11,224 bases of DNA from IMG/VR virus record IMGVR_UViG_2541047682_000007; one strand, given 5' to 3'. Source of the DNA: a virus. Taxonomy: Duplodnaviria > Heunggongvirae > Uroviricota > Caudoviricetes. A program made the translations under genes and the position numbers. Below, piece by piece: positions 256 through 10,164 of the stretch. Below the pieces are notes generated by a model. The model saw only the letters and a program-made list of their open reading frames with translations. It searched no databases and was not told where the DNA came from. Numbering within the stretch: the first letter of the stretch is position 1; each line of letters begins with the position of its first letter.

Positions 256-3201
256 TTAGTGCTTCCCTTCTATTAAGTCTAACCTAGCTTTTATTCTTTC
301 TATTTCTCTGCGCTGCCATGCTGCCTCGATATAGAATAAGAGATCAGGTCTGACCCCCCATCTAGATCCTGCTGGCGTTATTTCAACGCGCTCAATGATG
401 TCTTCCATTACCATCACTGGATTATCATCCTCATCAACAATGATGCTCCCGTCATTATCAGTCAGCGGCATTTCCCTTTGGCCAGTAATGACGTCATCAT
501 ATACTGCGGGATAATCGTCATAGCAAAGAAAGGCATAGCGGCATGTTGTGCTTTCTTCTTCCATGAGTCCGTGAGAAATAAGAACATCACGAAGTTGCTG
601 CGCGATTACACCATGATGTATCCTCGCCCCTTCTTCCCCCTTTATAGCGACAGCGTTCAGCCATTTATAAGCGATATACCTGACGTCACCCCAGGCATCC
701 AGCAATGTTTCGTCAGGAGAGACCGGCTCTGTCTTTAATGTTCCGTCACTGGTAACCACAGGATTGGAGCCAAGATAAACTATCGAGAACCTGTTTCCCG
801 GACCACCAAGAGCATTTACATTATCAAGATAAGGTTTAACATCTCCGTTCTCAAAAAGATGTTCGAGTGCGTTATATACCGCGCGACGTGGAGTACTGCT
901 TCTGGAACCATGCAACGTTATCATTGCACCATCTGCTGAAGACGTTGTTTCACCGCCGCTAACGATTAATCTCTGAGCGGTAACATCATCAGACGGTACT
1001 TTCTTCGCAATAATGGCGTAATTACCCTCAAGTTTGACTTCCGCGCGAACTTGTCCTGATGTACCTGCATGGACAGTCAGTGACTGGACGGCAACATCAT
1101 CTGTGAAATCAACGGGTACAGGAACCGTCCTCACGCCTGACGTCGACATAAAAGTAGGAAGCGTTCTGTTAGGAGTGGCTCCGTAGACAAAATCCCTTGA
1201 AACAAATTCTTCCTGTTTAATTTTCACCCTGAAACAATACAAATCAGCCGGGTGACCATCGTGAACATAAGGATATTTTCTGTTGTTATCCCCTATGCTC
1301 CATGGGTTTAGAAAGTCTTCCCCACCGAAAATGTAGTACAGCCAGTTGTCTTTGATACAAACTGAACCAACACCAACCGCAGAGTTAACTATTCCGCCCT
1401 GATAAATCTGATCAGTAACATTAACCCACTCTACATTATCCAGACTCCACTCATTGACGTTAACTCTGGTCATAAATGTTCTTGGATAGTTTCCTGCATA
1501 ACGGTTATCAGGTTCTCCTCCTTCCCACTCACCAAATGCGCGCTCACTGCCAAAAATAATCAGCTCATCGCCAACTTTGGCAAAAGGAAGGTTTGAGTGA
1601 TGAACATTATTTGGGAAGCGAAGAGAATTCCATGATGTACCTAAATCAGAGCTTCTGTGCAATGAACTACCGGGTTGAGTACTTAATGTCCCCCTGGTCG
1701 TCAGATACAGAATGCCATCATAATATTTTACACATGGCTCAGATGCATTCGCCTCATATTCTGCAGGTATGCGTCTGCGAACAAAGCTACCAGGAGAACC
1801 GAAAGCATCAGAGAAATAGAGTATCCCAAGCTCGCGTGGACCAATATCACCATTATGGTAGCCAACAGCAAAACTGTTATCGCTAATCGTCGCAAAACTG
1901 TGAATCTCAGTAACAGGAGTGCTTCCGTCAACAAAAGAAGGAATAGTTCCAAGACTGGTTTTTCTCCATGGTGACGAGTGAAATGATGTACCAAAACTCC
2001 AGTATCTACCCTCGTTATTCTGATCCACATCCTGGGTATTTTGCGTCGTAACTGTAAAAGTATTTTTATCAATAACAGTAGTCACCGTCATATTCCCGGT
2101 AACACCTGTAACACCAGAGTTTGAGAAGTTGACAAAATCACCAGCAAATAATCCGTGATCAGTAATGCGAATATAAGCGACTTGCTGATTTGCTGCTTTC
2201 GTTATACCACCATAAACGCGAAGGCTGCGACTCATTGGGCGATCCCACAACTCTGCAACCTGCAGTTTATTTCCGCTCACGGTCCGCGTCTCAATTACAG
2301 CAAAAAGGCGATTTCTGACAACCCCCATACTCATGCAGTGATAGTTAACTGTGGGATAGTTTTCATGTAAATCTGTAAGCCATTCCGGCGTTGTCCAGGT
2401 CTTCCCGTCATCTCCTGAGCGAACCCATGCAACATGGAGGTTATTTACACCATGGCGGTCTCCAGCCATAAAAGGCGCATAGATGACATTGTCATATACA
2501 AACGTTTTATCCTGCGTCCAGGCGTTGTACCACGGTGTATCTGTAATTTTAAATAACTCTCCCTGGATAAAATCTTCAGAAACATAAAAAAGAGGCTGAC
2601 CCGGTATTCTCTCAAATAAAAAACGAGCATTTTTAAATCGACTGACATCTGGAAGAGTTGATACTTTAAAAGTAAGCCCTCGCCCATCTATCTTTTCACC
2701 ACCTGTTGCAACAGAAAGTAATTCTGATAGAGCTGATGTATCATCATGAACACCATCACCAATAGCCCCCCAACCTCTTACATCATAACTGTCTCTCCAT
2801 CTTGCTATCTGAAGTTTTGGGTATTTATTCGCTCCATCTGGGTCTTCTAATTGCTGCCGTAGTTGATCAGGATCATACTTCAGCACATTCTGGAAATAGA
2901 ACTGCTGTACGCCATACGCATCGTACACAGCCATAGAATGGCCTTGCACAGTTACGAACTTGGCAATCCGTCCGTTATATACAGGGTAACCAGCAGCGTT
3001 AATGATGATTGGTTGCGAAACAGGAACGTGAGAGCCGTCTTCGTTCTCTACATAAACCTGAATCCGGTTTTCAGGATTTACCGGGTCAGTGTCAATTTTA
3101 CCGATATAAATTTTGCCATTGGCTACGGCTTTAAAAGAACGCGCCATAGTGAAGAGTTGCGAAGGCATCGATACAATCACATTGGCTGTAATGTCTGTCA
3201 T
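256..3201 (-). CDS. Tailspike protein: P22-type head-binding N-terminal domain fused to an endo-N-acetylneuraminidase (endosialidase) domain with a C-terminal intramolecular chaperone (S74-type) domain
   Basis: 981-aa ORF. N-terminus [13 protein letters not shown]...[21 protein letters not shown]...[15 protein letters not shown]...LKYDPDQ closely parallels the P22 gp9 head-binding domain as I remember it. Central region carries sialidase Asp-box motifs ([16 protein letters not shown]). The C-terminal ~150 aa resemble the auto-cleaving chaperone domain of K1-phage endosialidases. RBS GGAG 8-9 nt upstream of ATG at 3201. Confidence 0.9.
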
Positions 3202-3259: not shown

Positions 3260-3282
3260 AAAAAAACCCAGCCGAAGCTGGG
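3260..3282 (-). terminator. Rho-independent terminator between ant and the tailspike gene
   Basis: On the minus strand: stem CCCAGC, loop TTCG, stem GCTGGG, followed by TTTTTTT (plus-strand 3267-3282 cccagccgaagctggg preceded by an A-run). Confidence 0.6.
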
Positions 3283-3301
3283 TCGTTGCGTTGGTTATCT
3301 G

Positions 3302-4204
3302 TCAGTAATTATGTACTGAAGGAGGTAATTCTTTATTCTTAAGTCTCATCCATGCGGAAAGATTCGTTGGTCCGTCTGGCTCATTGATATCAACATCTCG
3401 TGTGTGATTGATTAAAACGTCTCTCGCCATATCGATAATACGGGAGAACTCATAACCGCAGTCATGACATCTGCCGGAATAGTTCGATTGAATTTGTTTT
3501 AGCGCCGGATACAGTTCGCGGAATAATGCCTGTGAGCGGTTGGCATAATCCCATAGCCATACAAGGCTGTTTGCTTCTTTTGCAGAAAGCTCGTTGGTTT
3601 TCTTCTCTTGTTTGCCGATGAACTCACCTTCAAGCACTACCCTGTGGATGTACTCTACTGCTTGTGGTATCTGAGATGCATCAAGCTCTTCAATACTTTC
3701 CACATTGAAACGCTGATGAATCATTGCATAAGCTTCTGGGTACATTAGATGCTTTTTGCTGACTAGCATATTTACAGCATCACGAAGCGGAGTCCTGTCA
3801 TCAACAGATGTTTTCTTCCGTGCATTTGCTGCCTCTCCCTTTGTCCAGTAGTCATGCAGCACAGTAAAGCATTCTTCCTGGTACTGAATCAGTTTATCGC
3901 GGATGTCAGCACGAACTTTCTCAGGGTTGATGCTGAACAGCCATCCATTTAACTTCTTCAAAGGAAGGCAGAGTAGCTTACGAAGCTTACCATCAGCGGC
4001 AACCATGTTCATATGAACACAGTTGAATTTGCTAATCTGCTTCATGAGTTTTGTTTGCTGCGTTGACCAGCTCATTCCGAGGTTTTCAACGATTGGCTTC
4101 ATCGCAACATATGCAACTCCGGCAGCCATGGCGGTGATAATTTGCTGACCGTTGAATGGCACGTAAGAGGTGTTCACTGCTTCTAAAATTGCTATACTAT
4201 TCAT
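3302..4204 (-). CDS. ant: Antirepressor Ant (P22 immI-type, 300 aa)
   Basis: ORF-track ORF 3302..4270 contains an internal ATG at 4204 preceded by GGAG with a 10-nt spacer. From that start the product is 300 aa, the length I recall for P22 Ant, beginning [21 protein letters not shown]. The longer 322-aa reading begins with GTG at 4270 and lacks a good RBS. Position between arc and the tailspike matches P22 immI. Confidence 0.8.
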
Positions 4205-4285
4205 GTTGGTTTTTCTCCACGGATTTACCGACAACCGAAGCCCTGACTGTTCCAGCAGTTGGGGCTTCACTGTTTTGATTTCTTT
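4205..4285 (+). ncRNA. Candidate Sar-like antisense RNA opposite the ant ribosome-binding site and start
   Basis: Plus-strand extended -10 element TGcTATACT (4190-4198) would put a start near 4205, directly opposite the ant start codon. Plus-strand hairpin GAAGCCC..ACTG-ttccag-CAGT..GGGCTTC (4237-4268) is followed by a T-rich tract ACTGTTTTGATTTCTTT (4269-4285). This is analogous to the P22 sar RNA. Inference only. Confidence 0.3.
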
Positions 4286-4436
4286 GCCGCATCAAGCATC
4301 ACTTCTGAAAACGTGCGCTTGCCACTGAATACTCTTTCTCTTCTCAATTTTTCGTTCGTGCCAAATGATTCGCCATGAACAAAATTTGGTCTTAAAATGG
4401 TAATCGCAATCTCTTTGACTACTGCATCCAAGCGAA

Positions 4437-4589
4437 TCACACCGTTACCCCCTCTCTCTTCAGGCTGTCTATCAGGCGCTTGATAACCTCTGAGTTAAAC
4501 GACCTGCACTCTTCCTTTGCCCTGCTACCGATAGCATCCTTTAACGACTGCGGCATCCTTACCAAAATCTTACTTATTTCTTTCTCCAT
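4437..4589 (-). CDS. arc: Arc repressor (ribbon-helix-helix, 50 aa)
   Basis: ATG at 4589 preceded by GGAGG with a 5-nt spacer. Product MEKEISKILVRMPQSLKDAIGSRAKEECRSFNSEVIKRLIDSLKREGVTV shows the P22 Arc pattern (MP-F/Q..., GRS-NSE). The longer track ORF begins with TTG. Divergent from mnt, upstream of ant. Confidence 0.8.
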   Translation of the reverse strand: MEKEISKILVRMPQSLKDAIGSRAKEECRSFNSEVIKRLIDSLKREGVTV

Positions 4590-4703
4590 GTTACCCTCCA
4601 CGCAAACAACTCTTTTCGAATACAAAAGATAGCAAAGTGAGTATATCTAGTCAAAATTTTTTTGCATACACTTTGCTATCAAATTGAATACCAAAGGTGT
4701 TAT
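4590..4703. promoter_or_regulatory. Divergent Pant/Pmnt control region containing a 13-bp perfect inverted repeat (aGATAGCAAAGTG 4627-4639 / CACTTTGCTATCt 4669-4681; 29-bp spacer)
   Basis: Intergenic region between divergently oriented arc and mnt. The inverted repeat was read directly. Minus-strand TTGACT (4654..4649) with TATCTT (4631..4626) 17 bp downstream is a plausible Pant. Exact hexamers are uncertain. Confidence 0.5.
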
Positions 4704-4952
4704 ATGGCAAAGGGTGTGTCAATTTCTCCAACTACGGTAAGAATCCCTGAATCTTTACGCGAGGCTCTTGCTGTCAGAGCATCAAAAAATGGTCGCTCTG
4801 TTAACTCCGAGATCGTCATGATTTTGCAAGCCGCGATTGATGAAGATAGGTCGCCAAAGTCAGTTGAGTCATTTGCTCAGCAAGAAGCTGATAAATTCAA
4901 AGAGGCGCTACTTGAGACGCTAAAGACCATGTATGCTAAGGATGAAAAATAA
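4704..4952 (+). CDS. mnt: Mnt repressor (ribbon-helix-helix, 82 aa)
   Basis: ATG at 4704 with AAGGTG 4 nt upstream. Product MAKGVSISPTTVRIPESLREALAVRASKNGRSVNSEI...ALLETLKTMYAKDEK parallels P22 Mnt (82-83 aa; ANGRSMNSE...TLKDLYKK). The track ORF is 5'-extended by an implausible upstream start. Confidence 0.85.
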   Translation: MAKGVSISPTTVRIPESLREALAVRASKNGRSVNSEIVMILQAAIDEDRSPKSVESFAQQEADKFKEALLETLKTMYAKDEK

Positions 4953-5488
4953 TGCTGCACACAATTCATTTCTTATGCCCTGTTAACACTGCCACTGTTG
5001 GGCAACTTCAGAACCACTGTCTCACCGCATTATCTCAAGGCGCAACTGAATTAAATATCCATATATCAAGTCAGGGAGGGGAAACTGCTGCTGGCTTTAC
5101 TGCGTATAACTTTCTTAAGTCACTCCCTGTTACCGTTAGAACTCACAACATAAGCAATGTTGAATCCATAGCTAATATCGTTTTCCTGGCTGGCTCAGAA
5201 CGTTTCGCAAACCCATTATCAAGATTCCTGTTACATCCTCTATTATGGTGCTTTGCCTCCCCAGCCGCCGACCATGCCAGATTGAGAGAGTACGGGAAAT
5301 GCCTCGATAACGATCTTGATCGCTTCGTTGAGACGTTCAATATCGACATCGGAACCCATATTAGGTGGGCATCCCTGATAGCAGACTCGACCATTTTGGA
5401 TGCTAACAAGGCTCTTGAGCATGGCATAATTAATTCCATAAAAACTGCAAGGCTGGCATCCAATCAGGCAAACTGGTGGGTTGTTTGA
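4952..5488 (+). CDS. ClpP-like (peptidase S14 / ClpP-crotonase fold) serine peptidase homolog, 178 aa, translationally coupled to mnt
   Basis: Start ATG overlaps the mnt stop (TAATG at 4950-4954). By-eye alignment to E. coli ClpP: ISSQGG vs INSPGG; NVESIANIVFLAG vs GQAASMGAFLLTAG (catalytic Ser aligned); RFANPLSRFLLHP vs RFCLPNSRVMIHQP (catalytic His aligned); LDNDLDRF vs ERDTERDRF (catalytic Asp aligned). Followed by a terminator hairpin. Confidence 0.7.
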   Translation: MLHTIHFLCPVNTATVGQLQNHCLTALSQGATELNIHISSQGGETAAGFTAYNFLKSLPVTVRTHNISNVESIANIVFLAGSERFANPLSRFLLHPLLWCFASPAADHARLREYGKCLDNDLDRFVETFNIDIGTHIRWASLIADSTILDANKALEHGIINSIKTARLASNQANWWVV

Positions 5489-5538: not shown

Positions 5539-5767
5539 AGTCAAACATAGTGTTTCTAAAGTCTCTCGCATACCCTGCTAACACTCTCATTCTATTATGA
5601 TTGTTAGCAGACATGTGAGCTACAGGATGAAAAAGAGCAATCAATGAATACCTGTTCTCATCAAAAAGATTTTGTGCATAAACGAGAGCGGTATTTGAAG
5701 TGGTTTACTGAATTTGGCCACCTGAACAGAGGTGATATGCTCACCTCAGAACAACACAGGTGCCATA

Positions 5768-6915
<1,148 letters not shown>

Positions 6916-7112
6916 CTCGGTGGCCAGTTTTTGTTGACCACTTCAATGCAACAGTTCGCTATTGCAGGGGCGGCATCGGTTCGCCCTTTCAACCCGATTT
7001 TATCGGTACAGCATTCACGAAAAAACATTTTAACCGGAGCAGACTTTAAACAACCAAGAATGAAAAGCTTGCTCGAAAAGCTTTGGGATATTTTGAAACA
7101 ACAAGGCCGTCC

Positions 7113-7372: not shown

Positions 7373-7978
7373 ATGAGCAAAGAATTTTACGCAAGACTGG
7401 CAGCTATTCAGGAGAATCTGAACGCGCCAAAGAATCAGTACAACTCATTCGGCAAATATAAATACAGAAGCTGCGAAGATATTCTTGAAGGCGTTAAGCC
7501 GTTACTGAACGGTCTGTTTTTATCAATCAGCGATGAAGTTGTGTTGATTGGTGATCGGTATTACGTGAAAGCCACGGCAACTATTACCGATGGCGAAAAC
7601 AGTCATACGGCAACCGCTCTTGCACGAGAGGAAGAAAGCAAGAAAGGAATGGATTCTGCACAAGTTACGGGAGCTACAAGCTCTTATGCACGCAAGTATT
7701 GCCTCAATGGTTTGTTCGGCATTGATGATGCGAAAGATGCAGATACAGACGAGCATAAACATCAGCAGAACGCAGCAGCAAAGCAATCAAAACCATCACT
7801 TACACCTGAACAGGTTCTAAAAGCATTCACTGACGCAGCAATGCAGAAAAACACCGTAGAAGAGCTTAAACAGGCGTTCGCCAAAGCGTGGAAGATGCTC
7901 GAAGGGACGCCGGAGCAGCACAAAGCGCAGGACGTTTACAACATCAGACGAGACGAATTAGAAGGGGCAACTGCTTAA
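7373..7978 (+). CDS. erf: Erf (essential recombination function) single-strand annealing recombinase
   Basis: Product from ATG 7373: MSKEFYARLAAIQENLNAPKNQYNSFGKYKYRSCEDILEGVKPLLNGLFLSISDEVVLIGDRYYVKATATITDGENSH... is near-identical in its N-terminal ~130 aa to my recollection of P22 Erf. The track ORF is extended upstream from a TTG. Confidence 0.9.
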   Translation: MSKEFYARLAAIQENLNAPKNQYNSFGKYKYRSCEDILEGVKPLLNGLFLSISDEVVLIGDRYYVKATATITDGENSHTATALAREEESKKGMDSAQVTGATSSYARKYCLNGLFGIDDAKDADTDEHKHQQNAAAKQSKPSLTPEQVLKAFTDAAMQKNTVEELKQAFAKAWKMLEGTPEQHKAQDVYNIRRDELEGATA

Positions 7979-9591: not shown

Positions 9592-10164
9592 ATGACCAAA
9601 ATTAACTATCAGGCACTGCGTGAGGCGGCAGAACGTGCAATTCCGGCAATGGAACGCCTGTTAATGTTGCCAGTTGATGATGATTTGTTAAGTGAACAGG
9701 AACTTAAGGATTACGGTGTGGATATTGATGCGCTCAACGCCTTCAAATTTCTGACCGGACCAGAAACCGTGCTGGCGCTGCTGGATGAACGGGAAAGAAA
9801 CCAGCAATACATCAAACGCCGCGACCAGGAGAACGAGGAAATTGCGCTAACGGTAGGGAAGCTGCGCGTTGAGCTGGAAGCTGCAGAGAAGCGCATTGCA
9901 GAACTGGAAGCCGAACCTGTAAGCCAAACTTACAAGTTGAACGAGCTGTCGGGCAACTATCCGGTAACTCCGGATGGTTGGATAAGCTGTAGTGAGCGAA
10001 TGCCCGCTCAAGATGATTGGATTTTAATTTATTCAAAGCACGGCGAGTATATGGCAGGACAGGTACAAGGGGAATACGTGGAGTTGAGCGACGGCACTTT
10101 ATCGTGGTTAGGGAACGCCTTGTACTGGATGCCTCTACCGGAACCGCCGCAGGAGGTTAATTGA
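9592..10164 (+). CDS. DUF551-type / Ea22-like prophage protein (190 aa) with central coiled-coil
   Basis: N-terminal MTKINYQALREAAERA... and C-terminal TPDGWISCSERMPAQDDWILIY...LYWMPLPEPP resemble the DUF551 C-terminal domain common in lambdoid early-left regions. Coiled-coil segment KLRVELEAAEKRIAELEAE. ATG 2 nt after the upstream stop. Confidence 0.7.
   Translation: MTKINYQALREAAERAIPAMERLLMLPVDDDLLSEQELKDYGVDIDALNAFKFLTGPETVLALLDERERNQQYIKRRDQENEEIALTVGKLRVELEAAEKRIAELEAEPVSQTYKLNELSGNYPVTPDGWISCSERMPAQDDWILIYSKHGEYMAGQVQGEYVELSDGTLSWLGNALYWMPLPEPPQEVN

Follow-up and report, generated by a model that had tools for sequence, protein, structure and literature searches.

The closest described systems are the immunity I (immI) region of phage P22 and its counterpart in phage epsilon34. 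The P22 sar RNA is experimentally documented (Liao 1987, Wu 1987, and Schaefer and McClure 1997, as cited in passages of PMC2629481), and it has also been detected by RNA-seq (PMC13397905). According to the references given in the same passages of PMC2629481, P22 sar pairs with the ant leader, including its Shine-Dalgarno (SD) sequence, and thereby blocks translation. In the annotated P22 record, arc ends at L001 position 2224 and ant starts at 2155, which leaves an arc-ant gap of 68 nt. For the "ant moron" of P22-like phages, Villafane et al. 2008 (PMC2629481) describe rapid genetic flux, with unrelated genes without assigned function in different phages.

The window, i.e., the whole stretch of 11,224 nt that was analysed, holds the immI region of a P22-like (Lederbergvirus-type) E. 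coli prophage. The tailspike encoded nearby, of 981 aa, is a K1 endosialidase, and the prophage is K1-specific. Over 571 nt that include the arc-ant gap, the sequence presents 100% identity to ATCC 11775 and to several K1 ExPEC/APEC chromosomes, and 98% identity to phage phiv205-1. The gene ant (3302..4204, minus strand) encodes a 300-aa antirepressor with the Pfam domains P22_AR_N (153 bits) and P22_AR_C (98.5 bits). It is preceded by arc (4437..4589, minus strand), a divergent allele of P22 arc that encodes a 50-aa ribbon-helix-helix (RHH) repressor (Pfam Arc PF03869, 45.9 bits). On the opposite strand, at the location of P22 mnt, lies a divergent mnt-like gene (4704..4952, plus strand) for an 82-aa RHH repressor (Pfam Arc, 41.8 bits; FitA-like_RHH, 34.4 bits), and this gene adjoins a ClpP-like gene (4952..5488, plus strand), assigned from gene order and Pfam. 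The combination by which a P22-type immI region is recognized, namely an Ant with both P22_AR_N and P22_AR_C, an Arc-family repressor before it and a divergent Mnt-like repressor, is therefore present.

The promoter scan yielded a candidate Pant on the minus strand at 4626..4654, a location equivalent to that of P22 Pant; the candidate is a consensus match (TTGACT, a 17-nt spacer and TATCTT, with TG). A repeat search also located a perfect 12-bp inverted repeat, GATAGCAAAGTG / CACTTTGCTATC, with arms 29 bp apart, at 4628..4680. These arms, situated between arc and mnt, are candidate operator half-sites, whose operator function we infer from the sequence.

A previous reading of this DNA, made from the sequence only, had proposed a sar-like antisense RNA on the plus strand that would cover the ant ribosome binding site (RBS), with an extended -10 promoter at 4190-4198 and a hairpin at 4237-4268 followed by a T-rich tract. 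All of these elements are present, and the proposed promoter, start and terminator coincide, with hardly any offset, with those annotated by homology in P22 and epsilon34. The Rfam covariance model RF00262 matches 4205-4271 (plus strand) over positions 1-68 of its 68, with a score of 83.9 bits and E = 6.7e-17, against a gathering score of 43 bits; given these values, the sar signal is not a product of chance. In the alignment to P22 immI that the sequence-only reading had suggested as a check, near-identity spans 4170-4269, beginning at Psar and running through the whole terminator stem, and homology ends there; over this interval, hardly a base differs from the sar annotated in P22 (BK000583) or in epsilon34.

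The Psar promoter (4170..4198, plus strand) aligns with the annotated Psar of the two phages, and its extended -10 element, TGCTATACT (4190-4198, within ant codons 3-5), is identical to the -10 annotated in both. The predicted sar start, 4205, is one base past the ant ATG, which occupies minus-strand positions 4204-4202 and reads CAT on the plus strand. Stem-loop II of sar (4237..4268, plus strand) consists of 14 pairs that close a 4-nt loop, with ACTGTTTTGA after it; the terminator scan reports it as an intrinsic terminator hairpin followed by ACUGUUUUG, and the 3' end of the RNA lies probably in the U-tract, at ~4274-4277. The folding check, also suggested earlier, yielded a minimum free energy structure with two hairpins for the 76-nt RNA, at -32.4 kcal/mol and z = -5.3, with 0 of 200 shuffles as stable. 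Judged by its sequence and predicted fold, the plus-strand RNA is a true homologue of sar. It is also an already known element, as it is annotated in epsilon34, to which the present sequence is 97.3% identical over ant and sar.

Psar was not listed by a generic sigma-70 promoter scan, which fits a promoter that depends on its extended -10 element and has no conserved -35. The comparison of nine loci is informative in this respect. The element TTGCTAnACT is invariant in 9 of 9 loci, whereas the -35 region varies. The ant 5' ends of these loci are of four unrelated types, which include P22_AR_N, Bro-N and KilA-N. All 14 pairs of the terminator stem are likewise invariant across the nine loci. 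Stem-loop I differs in sequence among them, yet it re-forms in each allele (z = -5.4 to -6.7), and all four allele types, each folded separately, give the same two-stem-loop fold. A fixed-register count of stem-loop I covariation over the nine loci is uninformative, given that the alignment of the divergent alleles is shifted by one column. An invariant -10 and terminator, combined with a changing -35 and stem-loop I, is what one would expect if the extended -10 promoter is functional and the RNA is a cis-antisense one. The Psar -10 element fixes the Ant N-terminus as M-x-S-(I/V/L)-A, and sar and its promoter are kept across the P22-like prophages of E. coli and Klebsiella despite unrelated Ant N-termini.

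At the nucleotide level, ant is 84.6% identical to its P22 counterpart and 97.3% identical to gene 18 of epsilon34, and its RBS and start are unchanged. The SD (GGAG) and the start codon at ATG 4204 are identical to those of P22 ant (300 aa; X01916, BK000583), and the extension from GTG 4270 is not conserved. The ant start is hence ATG 4204, which had already been preferred over GTG 4270. Were Ant to begin at GTG 4270, it would have 322 aa, with a stop-start overlap with the preceding ORF57 (described below), and the supposed RBS would be coding. The frame is indeed open from 4270 to 4204 in the present sequence and in HUSEC2011, and extended ant starts are picked by some automatic gene callers. 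However, the loop variant GTTACC places a TAA in that frame in P22, AR_0118 and AVS0171; the K. aerogenes GTG is 65 nt from the ATG, and therefore out of frame; the sequence upstream of GTG 4270, AAATCAAAACAG, has no SD; and ATG 4204 retains both the SD and the start of P22 ant. The GTG-4270 frame is thus open only by accident of the loop sequence, and the 322-aa form is very unlikely.

With ATG 4204 as the start of ant and the arc stop TGA at 4437-4439, the arc-ant gap (4205-4436) is 232 nt, which agrees with the length given in the sequence-only reading and is longer than the annotated P22 gap. In a P22-type immI region, the arc stop abuts the sar terminator, with a spacer of ~68 nt; here the spacer is 232 nt because an open reading frame, ORF57, intervenes. 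Homology to P22 and epsilon34 stops at 4269, exactly at the ORF57 stop, and the next 171 nt are absent from both phages. The spacer is therefore long because a 171-nt ORF57 cassette has been added, and sar covers only 4205 to ~4275.

ORF57 (4267..4440, minus strand) has 57 codons, a GTG start and no internal ATG. At both ends it shares bases with a neighbouring codon in a GTGA: its GTG with the arc TGA, and its TGA with the GTG at 4270-4268. The two overlaps and the lack of an ATG had been noticed previously. The last two bases of this TGA are the first bases of the ant-leader hairpin; in P22, arc ends 4-6 nt away. As regards annotation, a long arc-ant gap of this kind stands for an inserted small gene rather than for a new kind of leader.

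ORF57 matches phrog_17642 with E = 1.3e-43 over residues 2-57 of 57, and it is identical to the RefSeq hypothetical protein WP_000620145.1, a CDS called by PGAP; the match to this family, which has no assigned function, is full-length and presents no difference from ORF57. The frame is also annotated in phiv205-1, and the intact O104:H4 copy is not called by PGAP. ORF57 DNA occurs in 93 of 5426 complete E. coli genomes, with ExPEC K1 and O104:H4 outbreak strains among the carriers, as well as in 21 IMG/VR contigs and in K. aerogenes, always between arc and ant. The frame is intact in 24 of 24 full-length copies from E. coli and Klebsiella prophages (the present sequence, HUSEC2011, K. aerogenes and 21 IMG/VR loci), which comprise 6 nucleotide haplotypes. 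The database also contains frameshifted or truncated variants (P0004, P0006 and P0008-P0010), and a variant with an in-frame insertion of 15 residues (P0001). An identical ORF57 haplotype adjoins differing arc and ant alleles, which indicates that ORF57 moves as a module.

The sequence-only reading had treated the antisense RNA and the 57-codon frame as competing interpretations of the spacer, favouring the former, and had considered that conservation of the frame in relatives would speak against it. The RNA stands, yet the rivalry does not, as the 171 nt of the ORF57 cassette lie beyond sar. The frame is formally conserved, given the 24 intact copies and the PHROG and RefSeq entries, and sar is not refuted by this. 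Since ORF57 is conserved, the spacer is not just RNA.

The content of the interval between arc and the sar terminator varies among related loci. P22 and epsilon34 have nothing there, and NRG857C and NRZ100214 have a 12-codon in-frame remnant of ORF57. AR_0118 has a 60-aa ClpX C4 zinc-finger protein (PF06689, 42.2 bits, for a cutoff of 27 bits), and AVS0171 has a 74-aa cysteine-rich CxxC...CxxC protein that is sub-threshold for PF06689. The AR_0118 occupant is thus the only one to match PF06689 above the cutoff, and likeness to the ClpX zinc-binding domain is seen in two of four occupants, one clearly and one weakly. Each occupant begins before arc ends; the overlap is 4 nt for the E. coli loci and 8 nt for the ORF57 copy of K. 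aerogenes, and all of them stop at the same TCA (plus strand, 4267-4269). This shared overlap and stop position reveal a slot with fixed boundaries and exchangeable content. The arc-sar junction is hence a precise, reusable slot for small accessory genes, a small descriptive point that is modestly new.

ORF57 itself shares nothing with the ClpX-zinc-finger slot occupants: it has no cysteine, and no Pfam match to the ClpX C4-type zinc finger (PF06689) was obtained. Separately, the ClpX-zinc-finger alternatives, together with the ClpP-like gene that some of these prophages, the present one included, have beside mnt, give a hint of a link to proteolysis.

Several observations bear on whether ORF57 is a protein-coding gene. 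With a codon-usage score of 0.193, it ranks first among the six frames and falls within the in-frame distribution for the genes of the window (0.237 +/- 0.083), and none of the out-of-frame windows reaches this score. An SD-like GAGG lies ~10 nt upstream of its GTG. The substitutions are less favourable. In comparison with K. aerogenes, ORF57 presents 8 nonsynonymous and 3 synonymous changes (omega = 0.71), while in the same comparison the dN/dS of arc is 0.03 and Mnt is unchanged over its first 73 residues. The six haplotypes differ by 13 nonsynonymous to 5 synonymous changes, which are distributed among codon positions 1, 2 and 3 as 8, 4 and 6. With a dN/dS of ~0.7 and counts of 13:5, purifying selection on the protein is not demonstrated.

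Searches for relatives of ORF57 returned close ones only. Pfam, a PDB sequence search and PADLOC gave 0 matches; a word-indexed protein search gave relatives at 78-100% identity only; an exhaustive HMMER scan of 1.8 billion proteins gave no real remote homologue; and a scan of one genome per species gave no relative. The additional HMMER hits, to long repeat proteins such as those with FG-GAP repeats and low-complexity proteins, are regarded as artefacts, since their scores sum weak repeated matches. As for the origin of ORF57, a low-stringency blastn search against phages and plasmids retrieved phiv205-1 only, and a literature search with the ORF57 protein accessions and the PHROG number found nothing. 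The AlphaFold model has a pLDDT of 54, a pTM of 0.26 and three putative helices, with no confident fold.

On this basis, one may suppose that the 171 nt are untranslated, in which case ORF57 would be a chance or decaying frame in a spacer, or a relic of mosaic recombination, and only sar would be functional. The dN/dS of ~0.7, the spread of changes over codon positions, the orphan status with its low-confidence fold, the existence of frameshifted variants and the tolerance of a 45-codon deletion all agree with such a reading. Nevertheless, the codon usage of ORF57 matches that of real genes, with no out-of-frame window equalling its score; its start and stop geometry is the same as that of two bona fide genes found in the slot; the frame is open in all full-length copies; the natural deletion and the 15-residue insertion of P0001 both keep the frame; and an RNA structure signal that could explain the conservation is absent. 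We therefore regard an untranslated spacer as rather unlikely, and translation of ORF57 as likely. The most likely identity of ORF57 is that of a young accessory protein of narrow distribution, made with Arc and Ant, which is dispensable and weakly constrained.

The synonymous divergence of ORF57 is low: its dS is 0.09, about ten times lower than the 0.97 of arc. This could suggest that what is conserved here is a structured or regulatory RNA, such as an extended ant leader, given that its dS is low relative to both flanking genes, arc and mnt. The folding z-scores, however, are -1.3 for the minus strand (with the sar complement included) and +0.2 for the plus strand, compensatory changes occur in 0 of 65 predicted pairs, and the region can be deleted or replaced. 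The low dS is best explained by recent modular exchange, since an identical haplotype adjoins very different arc and ant alleles, and conservation as a structured RNA is extremely improbable.

A further alternative is that arc and ORF57 form a pair similar to a type II toxin-antitoxin system, with Arc as the RHH antitoxin and ORF57 as the overlapping downstream toxin. The gene order and the 4-nt overlap resemble those of operons of RHH antitoxins and toxins, and Arc weakly matches FitA-like and VapB antitoxin models, below threshold. Yet ORF57 has no match to a toxin family in Pfam or PADLOC and is weakly constrained; arc is at the P22 arc position, flanked by mnt, Pant, sar and ant; and ORF57 has been lost, or swapped for zinc-finger genes, while arc is unchanged. 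A toxin-antitoxin pair is, given these facts, decidedly improbable.

The explanation we consider quite probable as a whole is that of a sar homologue next to an ORF57 cassette, the latter in an exchangeable arc-sar slot. The homology, the structure, the coordinates, the cassette boundaries and the alternative occupants that enter it are those observed above, and within it ORF57 would be translated and have a function. By homology with P22, sar would be transcribed and would repress ant in the present prophage. Its transcription would proceed from the extended -10 Psar, start at 4205 and end at the hairpin 4237-4268 and U-tract, giving an RNA of ~67-73 nt that would be complementary throughout to the leader of the ant mRNA, the SD included. 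As in P22, sar would pair with this leader and block its translation, which would limit antirepressor synthesis after the initial burst from Pant.

ORF57 (a 174-nt cassette) would be the middle cistron of arc-orf57-ant, transcribed from Pant, with its translation most likely coupled to that of arc via the GTGA overlap. The protein would accordingly be made only in a transient burst, until Pant is shut by Arc, in an infection, or by Mnt, in a lysogen. Given that the stop bases lie in the ant-leader hairpin, the complement of sar stem-loop II, a ribosome terminating at the slot stop would cover its 5' arm whatever the architecture, and it could influence the pairing of the leader with sar.

A more speculative extension, which we consider unlikely as a whole, is that the few bases separating the arc stop from the base of the sar terminator are a dedicated docking site for swappable genes made together with Arc and the antirepressor. 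In view of the ClpX-like occupants and the ClpP-like gene, the cassettes, including ORF57, might adjust proteolysis by host ClpXP, or how stable Ant or the repressor is, during the Pant burst. As the common stop is inside the ant-leader hairpin, translation of a cassette might also open the sar target, and so set the efficacy of sar. The slot, including its ClpX-zinc-finger-like proteins, could guide work on the modulation of the antirepressor burst.

In comparison with the sar of P22 and epsilon34, the present RNA is alike in having its promoter in the first ant codons, its start one base from the ATG, two stem-loops and a terminator, as well as complementarity to the ant SD region and an almost identical sequence along the full RNA. 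The loop of stem-loop II differs by 1-2 bases, being UCCA here, UCCC in epsilon34 and UACC in P22. Unlike in P22, the tail after the terminator is CACUGUUUUG, rather than the CAACUUUACG of P22, and it is the final codons and the stop of ORF57, not the arc stop, that the 3' end overlaps.

Regarding immI as a whole, the locus shares with P22 its gene order and orientation, the Ant domains, the antisense RNA, the adjacency to the tailspike, and the Arc-family repressors that flank a divergent promoter region. It differs in that megablast does not find its arc and mnt alleles, which are too divergent, in that arc and ant are separated by ORF57 as a third cistron, and in that mnt is followed by a ClpP-like gene, whereas P22 has orf59a and sieA. 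The ORF57 slot is one instance of the rapid genetic flux described for the ant moron of P22-like phages. The flux described in PMC2629481, however, is around the immI genes, whereas the slot found here is inside the arc-ant operon, and both of its boundaries are fixed within a few bases.

The N-terminus of Ant is, as judged from sequence, constrained by the antisense promoter Psar, because the extended -10 element of that promoter, read on the opposite strand, makes up ant codons 3-5 (codons 1-5 correspond to window positions 4193-4204). Every Ant allele examined, i.e., that of the window and those of the related loci L001 (P22), L002, L005-L008, L013 and L014, starts with M-x-S-(I/V/L)-A, even though the N-terminal domains vary (P22_AR_N, Bro-N and KilA-N).

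The position between arc and sar, held in the window by the 57-codon ORF57, is occupied differently among prophages. An intact ORF57 is found in E. coli O104:H4 HUSEC2011 (L006, 1579-1752), and likewise in H96-H101. The copy in the O104:H4 outbreak-lineage prophage differs by R3C and I13L, is not annotated by PGAP, and is flanked by arc and ant alleles very unlike those of the window. In E. coli NRG 857C (L013, 1171-1268) and in L012, 135 nt were cleanly removed from ORF57, in frame, the deletion being bounded by the short repeats TTGGATGC and TTGATGC. A 12-codon mini-ORF remains, which keeps both the overlap with the arc stop and the end at the sar terminator. In place of ORF57, E. coli AR_0118 (L005, 1618-1800) and AVS0171 (L014, 1318-1542) have stand-alone proteins resembling the ClpX zinc-binding domain, of 60 and 74 aa, respectively.

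The candidate Pant/Pmnt promoters are flanked by a perfect 12-bp inverted repeat (4628-4639 / 4669-4680) and by an 11-nt direct repeat (4618-4628 / 4686-4696). Both repeats probably serve as operators for Arc or Mnt, and their sequences are not those of P22. Directly downstream of ant (3265-3284, minus strand), GACCCAGCTTCGGCTGGGTT and the T7 tract after it form a strong intrinsic terminator, the counterpart of the annotated ant terminator in P22 and epsilon34.

Where P22 has orf59a and sieA, the window has a gene for a ClpP-like serine protease of 178 aa (4952-5488, plus strand; PF00574, 44 bits), for which PADLOC gave no match. It starts one base within the mnt stop codon (TAATG) and would be co-expressed with mnt from the prophage. 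Farther along, an ISEc52-like element of the IS3 family (about 5650-6950; orfA 5732-6070, orfB 6097-6915) directly connects the immI region with early-left-operon genes, including erf (7373-7978) and an Ead/Ea22-like gene (9592-10164). P22 has its ejection-protein genes at this place; hence, the prophage has undergone rearrangement and is probably defective. None of the complete E. coli genomes matches more than 82% of the window at a single place.

The tailspike (256-3201, minus strand), a K1 endosialidase, combines a head-binding domain of the P22 type with a chaperone domain (Peptidase_S74) at its C-terminus; the phage is therefore CUS-3-like and K1-specific. According to a 2008 paper on epsilon34 (PMC2629481), arc is seemingly absent from CUS-3-type ant morons. 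The window carries a clear Arc-family gene.
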